Shown here piece after piece: positions 49,613 through 50,898 of a stretch of DNA of 64,000 bases. The DNA comes from an uncultured Pelagibacteraceae bacterium (GTDB lineage: Bacteria > Pseudomonadota > Alphaproteobacteria > Pelagibacterales > Pelagibacteraceae): positions 5,596 to 69,595 of the forward strand of contig CACHIV010000005.1 of the NCBI GenBank assembly GCA_902579985.1, in the 5' to 3' direction. Every line of letters begins with the position of its first letter. Position 1 is the first letter of the stretch. A program made the translations under genes and the position numbers. Below the pieces are notes generated by a model, which saw only the letters and a program-made list of their open reading frames with translations, made no database searches and was not told where the DNA came from.

Positions 49613-49681
49613 ATGGCTAAAAGAAGAAAAAAAGCTAAAAAGAAAGCTAAGAAAAAAGCTAAAAAAAGAAGAAGAAGATAA
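49613..49681 (+). CDS. Unannotated 22-aa ultra-basic protamine/histone-H1-like peptide MAKRRKKAKKKAKKKAKKRRRR
   Basis: SD AGGGAG at 49601-06, ATG at 49613, TAA at 49679-81; has its own promoter and a polar terminator. Confidence 0.8.
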   Translation: MAKRRKKAKKKAKKKAKKRRRR

Positions 49682-49700: not shown

Positions 49701-49743
49701 AAAAACGCTTCTCATAACTTTAGTGTGAGAGGCGTTTTTTTTT
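49701..49743 (+). terminator. Intrinsic terminator ending the mini-gene transcript (may also serve the convergent carD)
   Basis: aaaaacgcttctcata-actttag-tgtgagaggcgttttt: 16-bp stem with two G.U pairs, T9 tail at 49735-43. Confidence 0.85.
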
Positions 49744-49748
49744 AATTT

Positions 49749-50630
49749 TTAATCTTCTGGATTAGTAATCTGTTCAGGCTCTGATATTTCTGGTTGTATA
49801 TTTTTAGCAGGAGTTACAACGTTTTTTTCTTGGGTAACTTGTTGATTTCTTTTTAAAGCTTTATCCAATTTTTTTTGAGTATTCTCTGATGAGATTCCTA
49901 ATATTATTTGAAATTCTGATAATATCCTCTCATAGGCTTTTTCAAAAAGTTGTCTTTCGCTGTAAGATTGATCTACCATTAGATCATCTCCTTTGTTTAG
50001 ATCTCTTACCACTTCTGCAAGTTCATAAATTTTACCTGAAGAAATTTTTGCTTCATATTCTTGTGCTCTTCTACTCCACATCGATCTTTTGATTTTTGGT
50101 TTGCTTTTTAAAATAGATATACACTTAGTTACCTGATTAATTGTTGCCAGCGGTCTAAGATGGGATTGTTTATTTACTGGAACCATTCCACTAGCTTTAT
50201 CTTTTTCAAATTTAAGAACGTAGGTTTCTACATCAATTCCACCAATATTTATTTTCTTAAATTCAGTAATTTGACCAACTCCATGTTTTGGATAAACTAC
50301 ATAGTCTTTTATTTTATATATTTTCTTTTCTGTTTCTTGTTTTTTTACTTTTTTAATTTCAGGCTTAATTTCATTATTTTTTGAAATTCTTAAGTTATTA
50401 TTTTTTGTATCTATTTTTTGTGTAACAGAATTCTTATTAGCATTTTTTGAATTTTTTTTAGTAATAGATAATTTAGATTTAGACTTAAGAAGTTTTTTTT
50501 TGACTGCTTTAATTTTCGTTTTTTTTCTAGAATTCGAATTAGTCTTTTTTTTTACTGTTTTCTTTTTCTTTTTAAAGATTTTCGTTAAAATATTTTTCGT
50601 ACTTATTTTCTTCATTTTTATGTTCTTCAT
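49749..50630 (-). CDS. carD: CarD family RNA-polymerase-binding regulator with a ~100-aa Lys-rich N-terminal extension
   Basis: [28 protein letters not shown] and [12 protein letters not shown] motifs; follows fdxA. Start is 50630 or 50615. Confidence 0.93.
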
Positions 50631-50898
50631 GATCCACTGGAGGATCTTTTTTTTCAGTTATATTTGGCCAAATCTCAGAATACTTTCTGTTTAATTCTAA
50701 CCACTTTTCACTTCCAGACTCAGTTTCAGCGACAATAGCATCAACTGGACATTCTGGTTCACAAACGCCACAATCTATACACTCCTCCGGTTTAATTACA
50801 AGCATATTTTTTCCTTCATAAAAGCAATCAACAGGGCAAACTTCTACACAGTCCATTAATTTACATTTTATACATTTCTCATTTACTACATAAGTCAT
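50572..50898 (-). CDS. fdxA: 7Fe/8Fe ferredoxin FdxA
   Basis: [29 protein letters not shown] and [12 protein letters not shown] motifs. Confidence 0.95.

Follow-up and report, generated by a model that had tools for sequence, protein, structure and literature searches.

A translated, polycationic N-terminal tail on the housekeeping CdnL/CarD factor of a Pelagibacter genome

The cdnL gene and its conserved core

We analyzed the cdnL/carD gene of an uncultured Pelagibacteraceae bacterium. The gene lies on the minus strand at 49749..50630 of a 64,000-nucleotide (nt) stretch of DNA, hereafter the window (GenBank assembly GCA_902579985.1, contig CACHIV010000005.1, positions 5,596 to 69,595). There, an open reading frame (ORF) of 293 codons plus stop matches the Pfam families PF02559 and PF21095. 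It encodes the sole PF02559 protein of the genome (1.16 Mb, 27.6% GC, 95% complete). Its named top matches in the protein database, 280–310 amino acids (aa) long, come from 'Candidatus Pelagibacter sp.' and are annotated as CarD family or as transcriptional regulators. Judged from its sequence, the protein is the housekeeping CdnL/CarD factor of Candidatus Pelagibacter, below the SAR11 CdnL.

In CdnL/CarD proteins, a domain that interacts with RNA polymerase (RNAP), the RID, binds the β1 lobe of RNAP and a Trp of the helical domain, acting as a wedge, touches the transcription bubble at its upstream edge, stabilizing the open promoter complex. Both domains are found here, confined to the C-terminal two thirds of the protein. 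The Tudor-like RID (CarD_TRCF_RID, PF02559; E 1.6e-13, 51 bits against a Pfam cut-off of 23) spans aa 105–161 (50148..50318, minus strand), with predicted β-strands and a predicted local distance difference test score (pLDDT) of 81–90. The C-terminal helical domain (CarD_C, PF21095; E 8e-20) spans aa 170–256 (49863..50123, minus strand). Mean pairwise identity within the genus is 85% for the RID and 90% for the helical domain. A first-pass annotation of the sequence had placed the start of the core near residue 103 and singled out a conserved Trp in the motif MWSRR. This agrees with the Pfam start at residue 105, and that Trp (W185, codon 50076–50078) is invariant in a 65-sequence alignment, as are R187, R188, and R226 of the basic patch and P151 of the RNAP-contact loop. 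By this alignment, the residues needed for the Trp/bubble-edge contact are all conserved in the SAR11 CdnL.

At the positions of the Caulobacter RNAP β-contact residues V39, R52, and P54, the SAR11 CdnL has T136, M149 (codon 50184–50186), and P151, the Pro being kept. The R52 equivalent is Met in the 17 genus sequences that could be scored by pattern; a second Pelagibacterales family has Arg there, as do 125 of 133 other alphaproteobacteria. An R52A substitution did not weaken binding by Caulobacter CdnL (PMC5324124).

The best solved match to the core is CdnL of M. xanthus (2LWJ, E 1.7e-17), followed by the CarD proteins of Streptomyces, Mycobacterium, and Thermus. These relatives align from their own residues 2–8 to residues 103–105 of the SAR11 protein, and thus none of them has an N-terminal extension. 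The two-domain core is the same as that of the stand-alone CdnL/CarD proteins of Myxococcus, Mycobacterium, and Thermus (PDB 2LWJ, 4KBM/6EDT, and 4XLR). Caulobacter crescentus CdnL (PMC5324124, PMC6994171) and Rhodobacter sphaeroides CarD likewise share the RID and helical core, the Trp, and the basic patch. Unlike all of these, the SAR11 protein has about 100 extra N-terminal residues with a net charge of +35. It further differs from Caulobacter CdnL by the Met at the R52 position and by lacking an AA/VA ending.

Mfd/TRCF was not detected in the whole genome: TIGR00580 gave only weak partial matches (at most 44 bits against a cut-off of 800), which fall on one 654-aa and one 725-aa ORF. If Mfd is truly absent, CdnL would have no competitor for its site on the β1 lobe.

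The N- and C-terminal tails

The N-terminal tail (aa 1–104) contains 38 Lys and 2 Arg against 1 Asp and 4 Glu, and it is the second most basic 60-aa window among the 1164 ORFs of the genome. The most basic one lies outside the window, at the N-terminus (MKKIKKKFVKKRSSKNKK) of a 383-aa ORF (C1:287365-288516, minus strand) whose remainder abounds in Glu, Lys, Arg, and Gln and by eye resembles a coiled coil. Also outside the window, two ORFs on the plus strand (C8:40078-42129 and C4:37473-39128) start with K-rich stretches of about 35 aa when the longest reading is taken; by inspection, they would encode an enzyme like acetyl-CoA synthetase and one like aldehyde dehydrogenase. The ORF at C4:37473-39128 has an internal Met at residue 37, and thus at least one of these K-rich starts may be an over-extension.

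Three parts can be told apart in the tail. An N-terminal cap (aa 6–22; 50565..50615, minus strand) has a mean pairwise identity of 65% in the genus, and a juxta-core motif (aa 77–104; 50319..50402, minus strand) one of 73%. Between them lies a variable polycationic spacer of K/S/N/T composition (aa 23–76; 50403..50564, minus strand) with only 29% identity and a pLDDT of 42–48. AlphaFold2, run with 65 sequences, returned a pLDDT of 42–60 over residues 1–104 versus 81–93 for the core. The single helix predicted in the tail (aa 14–18, in the cap) is of low confidence, and the spacer was modeled without secondary structure. The tail is hence predicted to be intrinsically disordered.

The first-pass annotation had described the tail as H1-like. 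The composition does not bear this out in the strict sense: the tail is rich in K/N/I/S/T with 2 Ala and 1 Pro, and so reads as polycationic rather than H1-like, the histone H1 type being K/A/P-rich with S/TPKK motifs. A motif check of the protein found no AT-hook, RGRP/GRP, or S/TPKK motif in the tail. That the tail is built from K/N/S/T/I and not from K/A/P follows from the 27.6% GC of the genome. An origin from tandem DNA repeats was rejected, as only weak low-complexity arrays of 6–11 nt were present. The tail-coding DNA had no match to an RNA element in Rfam even at E up to 1; sub-threshold Rfam matches all fall within the mini-gene and terminator region described below.

Across two Pelagibacterales families, the tail is 91–121 aa long, with a net charge of +29 to +47 and a K+R content of 37–46%. 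The second family, only about 45% identical to this protein over the matched region, has tails of 101–121 aa with a net charge of +38 to +47 and a different juxta-core motif. What is conserved across the order is the length and charge of the tail, not its sequence. Thus, both the alignment of N-termini over Pelagibacterales and the prediction of disorder, which the first-pass annotation had put forward as checks, came out in favor of the tail.

Is the tail made into protein? The reading frame could be an annotation artefact, with the real start at a non-canonical codon by the core and the upstream frame untranslated. The ATA codons at positions 104 and 107 and the overlap of the ORF start with the upstream ferredoxin gene fdxA would fit such an artefact. 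A census of start codons upstream of the core found ATG, GTG, or TTG at codon 1 (50630) and codon 6 (50615) only, in keeping with the earlier remark that there is none between 50615 and the core. The possible starts in codons 7–104 are limited to the rare ATT, ATA, and ATC, and an in-frame TAA lies at ∼50660. Read from the first ATG to the core, the tails of 28 Pelagibacterales genomes have no stop in 2862 codons, versus 305 and 375 stops when the same DNA is read in the other two sense frames. Interspecies indels are many in the middle of the tail, and every one is in frame. An internal or non-canonical start near the core was rejected: the ATA codons are not conserved, and most relatives have Glu (GAA, not a start) there. 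The motifs conserved at the protein level within the tail also speak against an artefact. The absence of stops, the in-frame indels, and the lack of conservation of the core-proximal ATA show that the tail is translated, as had been claimed from the start codons; an artefact is very unlikely.

Most relatives start at the position that corresponds to codon 6 (MKKISLKNILKK, MKKISLK), which makes 50615, the second ATG, the more probable start; the protein would then have 288 aa. A perfect 5-bp inverted repeat (GATCC..GGATC) lies in the ferredoxin gene at 50631–50646 of the window, directly upstream of the first carD ATG. This repeat could affect translational coupling or the choice between the starts at 50630 and 50615.

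At the other end of the protein, a C-terminal tail (aa 257–293 plus stop; 49749..49862, minus strand) is predicted to be disordered, with a pLDDT of 41–52 from residue 270 (the last 24 residues), and ends in NPED. The tail had been called acidic, which holds for its last 14 aa (net −5) but hardly for all 37 (net −1). Its net charge varies between 0 and −9 within the genus; the second Pelagibacterales family has a C-terminal tail of 17 aa with a net charge of +2. Rather than acidity, the distinguishing C-terminal feature is the loss of the AA/VA/IA ending, which is found in 0 of 32 Pelagibacterales versus 120 of 137 other alphaproteobacteria; most genus members end in EE, ED, or DD. In Caulobacter, the AA ending of CdnL directs its ClpX-dependent degradation, and an AA-to-DD mutant is stabilized (PMC5324124). 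A C-terminal tail without AA/VA would make the SAR11 CdnL less prone to turnover by ClpXP, and it may also damp the basic N-terminal tail electrostatically.

These endings and the Caulobacter precedent could also mean that the tails form a stability or regulatory module, in which loss of the AA degron and the N-terminal cap alter the proteolysis of CdnL and the tail is a site for an adaptor or a degron. Such a module accounts for the C-terminus but not for a 100-aa tail of +35, and most of the long N-tailed CdnL proteins of other orders (see below) keep the AA ending. We consider it distinctly improbable.

Long-form CdnL and the flanking genes

We searched 1.84 billion representative proteins with the core alone, using phmmer. 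The search returned many homologues with 41–53% identity in which the core starts at residue 100–360. Their N-terminal parts are rich in Lys, Ala, Pro, and Thr (e.g., KKPAAKKPATKKPTPKK), with KKPAAKK-type repeats in some homologues from GC-rich genomes, and most of these proteins end in AA. By composition, the resemblance to H1 seems to belong to these GC-rich relatives. K/A/P-rich N-terminal tails of 65–310 aa occur in Parvibaculum (182–211 aa), Hyphomicrobium and other Hyphomicrobiaceae (163–249 aa), Bradyrhizobium (65–74 aa, net +11 to +15), Rhodobiaceae (194 aa, net +60, in a metagenome-assembled genome), and others, and Tepidicaulis marinus also has a basic N-terminal tail. Rhodobacterales, Methyloceanibacter, and Caulobacter have only 7–13 residues before the core. 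Since tails are found in GC-rich genomes, their lysine richness there is not a by-product of base composition. In one 259-aa metagenomic protein, an N-terminal part resembling the receiver domain of a response regulator precedes the last two thirds of a Pelagibacter-like CarD whose RID is truncated, either through a genuine fusion or through a chimeric assembly.

For counting, we defined an informal group, long-form CdnL (not a published family), whose members have 60 or more residues before the RID, with a net charge of +15 or higher, no more Arg than Lys, and predicted disorder. The SAR11 CdnL belongs to this group (104 aa, +35, pLDDT 42–60). A class-wide sample, made of an even draw of 400 alphaproteobacterial genomes plus that of the window, gave a CdnL match in 358 of 401 genomes. 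Among the 150 best-listed matches, the 60 with the longest open frames (at least 220 aa) were fetched and their tails checked. A tail of at least 60 aa with a net charge of at least +15 was present in 35 of these 150 best matches (about a quarter), which come from 18 families and include two further AT-rich lineages of 1.4 Mb. The SAR11 tail is thus one case of a widespread alphaproteobacterial long form and not a peculiarity of Pelagibacter. Full-text literature searches found no papers that describe or test these N-terminal tails; Table 1 of PMC2919716 gives alphaproteobacterial lengths of 143–456 aa without comment. Long-form CdnL with a basic N-terminal tail is apparently undescribed so far.

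We built a tree of 166 CdnL cores, in which AT-rich long branches may attract each other. Pelagibacterales and one other AT-rich family form a supported clade (99) whose members are all long-form, and therefore one origin suffices for Pelagibacterales. Elsewhere on the tree, long and short forms interleave: parsimony requires at least 16 changes versus ∼45 for shuffled labels, but no more than 2 are demanded by the well-supported branches. A profile made from the juxta-core motif of Pelagibacterales found tails of that order only, the scores of other orders being no higher than those of shuffled and reversed controls. A cross-order tail motif ('IRPK..N..QKP.I'), seen by eye in a few sequences, is not claimed because the scores of other orders do not exceed these controls.

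The tail had been proposed to be an independent acquisition, at the end opposite to that of the basic domain of myxobacterial CarD. Myxobacterial CarD has an HMGA-type (M. xanthus) or H1-like (Anaeromyxobacter) domain (PMC2919716; Garcia-Heras et al. 2009 cited there). Like CarD, the SAR11 protein combines a CdnL-type RNAP-binding module with a basic, disordered, and presumably DNA-binding region. However, this region is N-terminal and has neither RGRP AT-hooks nor an acidic linker, and where CarD has a C-terminal HMGA/H1-like domain after an acidic stretch, the SAR11 protein has its 37-aa tail of net −1. From its position at the opposite end and the lack of an AT-hook, the tail is not derived from CarD, and because the core groups with alphaproteobacterial CdnL, its origin is separate from that of myxobacterial CarD. 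The separate origin and the opposite end were thus upheld. A special acquisition by Pelagibacter was not, once the N-termini of other alphaproteobacteria were compared.

Upstream of carD on the same strand lies the fdxA-like ferredoxin gene (50572..50898; Fer4 and DUF3470). The carD ORF overlaps its 3′ end by 59 nt, or by 44 nt if counted from the second ATG. This order is shared with other alphaproteobacterial cdnL genes: at 157 of 169 alphaproteobacterial loci, cdnL is directly preceded on its own strand by an ORF with a ferredoxin motif, making this a very stable pair. On the minus strand, the genes for a helicase, TerB, the ferredoxin, and CarD adjoin or overlap one another. A search for an internal carD promoter found promoter-like sites at less than chance level (20 versus 29 in shuffled sequences), and the best of them on the minus strand is found upstream of the helicase gene, suggesting a helicase-terB-fdxA-carD operon.

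Unlike Caulobacter-type cdnL, the SAR11 gene has coding sequence in place of its 5′ leader: the 253-nt spacer from fdxA to the core is entirely coding. In short-form alphaproteobacteria (n = 52), the spacer is non-coding and the median distance from the ferredoxin stop to the core is 324 nt, in agreement with the median of 312 bp given for the cdnL 5′ intergenic region (PMC5324124). In Pelagibacterales, this distance is 229–359 nt and no non-coding spacer is left. The ATG lies 32–59 nt inside fdxA, and in the second family 4–9 nt downstream of the fdxA stop (4 nt inside in one genome). In GC-rich long forms the distance is longer, with mostly 250–690 nt kept before the ATG, plus the tail. Two histories, deletion of the leader from an ancestral long form and conversion of the leader itself into coding sequence, both fit.

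With so close a match between the Pelagibacterales spacer and both leader medians, the tail might be a tolerated by-product: the old leader of ∼320 nt would have become translated after the start moved upstream in streamlined AT-rich genomes, its A-rich RNA reading as poly-lysine, and the tail itself would be without function (constructive neutral evolution). It takes up exactly the length of the spacer and even reaches into fdxA, its DNA is 54–64% A in the 28 Pelagibacterales genomes, and some other ORFs of the genome also begin with short K-rich runs in longest-ORF calls. Yet these genomes, the most streamlined known among free-living cells, retain 300 nt at this site throughout the order; a single ATA-to-ATG change by the core, or a deletion, would be enough to remove the tail. 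Charge and length are conserved, and the two motifs are 65–73% identical. Moreover, GC-rich relatives carry tails in addition to a retained leader of 250–690 nt, and therefore the tails are not merely translated leaders. We think it unlikely that the tail is such a by-product.

On its other side, carD faces a convergent 22-aa polycationic mini-ORF (MAKRRKKAKKKAKKKAKKRRRR; 49613..49681, plus strand), as the first-pass annotation had it. A 16-bp hairpin with T-runs on both sides (49701–49739), found in a terminator scan, is a likely bidirectional terminator of carD and the mini-gene. The 22-aa peptide had no NCBIfam match; in some genomes of the genus it starts with MPKRRKKAKK instead of MAKRRKKAKK, and its length is 21–27 aa. 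The mini-gene is the convergent neighbor of carD in 12 of 20 genus genomes (7 by a peptide search of the loci and 5 by DNA pattern). It was not found in the second Pelagibacterales family by either method (0 of 16 genomes by DNA pattern), where 15 of 16 genomes have a tailed CdnL. Thus, the tail is older and broader than the pairing, and this pattern of co-occurrence leaves the proposed joint locus of basic factors a weak idea.

A proposed role for the tail

Low-complexity, polycationic, disordered tails that bind DNA non-specifically are known from the N-terminal extension of Deinococcus HU, the C-terminal tail of mycobacterial HupB, chlamydial Hc1, and Pseudomonas AlgP. Those are architectural proteins with K/A/P-type lysine-rich tails, whereas the SAR11 tail is of K/N/S/T/I composition and sits on an RNAP-bound initiation factor. 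In Streptomyces DdbA, an N-terminal H1-like domain is fused with a DksA-like RNAP-binding domain (PMC3643593). The RNAP-binding part of DdbA is of the type that acts in the secondary channel and not, as in CarD, at the β1 lobe and promoter DNA; DdbA is developmentally regulated, whereas SAR11 cdnL lies in a housekeeping operon. Caulobacter CdnL itself uses basic residues to bind DNA non-specifically, and it functions less well with a FLAG tag at its N-terminus (PMC5324124).

Taken together, these observations lead us to propose that the housekeeping CdnL is made with a disordered, polycationic N-terminal tail of ∼100 residues that acts as a non-specific DNA arm. We hold this proposal to be probable, with a good measure of doubt. 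We favor it because charge and length are conserved over sequence, because the tail is predicted to be disordered, because tails also occur in GC-rich genomes, and because CarD and DdbA (PMC3643593) provide precedents. By analogy with these, the tail would most likely serve as a tether. It would form a non-sequence-specific arm on an open-complex stabilizer and bind the backbone or the minor groove of AT-rich DNA. Through such binding, CdnL would stay enriched on the nucleoid and on the DNA that flanks promoters, and the effective affinity for RNAP-promoter complexes would rise, as with the HMGA/H1-like domain of myxobacterial CarD.

Several points weigh against a DNA arm. An open frame proves translation and not usefulness: with the only start upstream, any stop in the tail would abolish CdnL, on which the normal growth of Caulobacter depends (PMC5324124). 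With little Ala and Pro and with neither AT-hook nor S/TPKK motifs, the tail is like H1 and HMGA in charge alone. Finally, the two conserved motifs suggest specific partners, for which a purely polyelectrolyte model does not account.

A polycationic tail that is long, disordered, and conserved in charge could also bind a polyanion other than DNA (nascent rRNA or ribosomes, polyphosphate) or RNAP clusters, and CdnL would then organize transcription condensates. CdnL acts at rRNA promoters in other bacteria (PMC5324124), and the acidic C-terminal tail of the genus could allow charge pairing within or between molecules. However, the C-terminal tail is only net −1 here, and the second family has the same N-terminal tail with a 17-aa C-terminal tail of net +2; DNA is moreover the most abundant polyanion beside an RNAP-bound factor. 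We give binding to another polyanion little chance of being the main role and retain the DNA arm as the preferred one.

A further and more speculative possibility, which we doubt but find worth stating, concerns the AT-rich lineages (Pelagibacterales and at least two other small-genome families). Their tail may have arisen de novo from the ∼320-nt leader and become fixed as a polycationic arm, CdnL doubling as a nucleoid-associated protein. If so, nucleoid binding would be coupled to open-complex stabilization in cells with very few regulators and apparently no Mfd.

CdnL/CarD is a general initiation factor that is essential to mycobacteria and myxobacteria and that Caulobacter needs to grow normally (PMC5324124), and the mechanistic and structural work on it has all been done on short forms that start at the core. 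SAR11 bacteria are among the most abundant in the ocean and have very few regulators, and current models ignore the large polycationic arm on their CdnL and on about a quarter of the alphaproteobacterial matches inspected. The long-form species include the cultured genera Bradyrhizobium, Hyphomicrobium, and Parvibaculum, so the question is directly testable. If the proposal is right, the SAR11 CdnL would be the second independent case, after myxobacterial CarD, of an RNAP-bound factor with a histone-like tail. If the arm binds DNA, the promoter selectivity, occupancy, and dosage of CdnL would have to be rethought.

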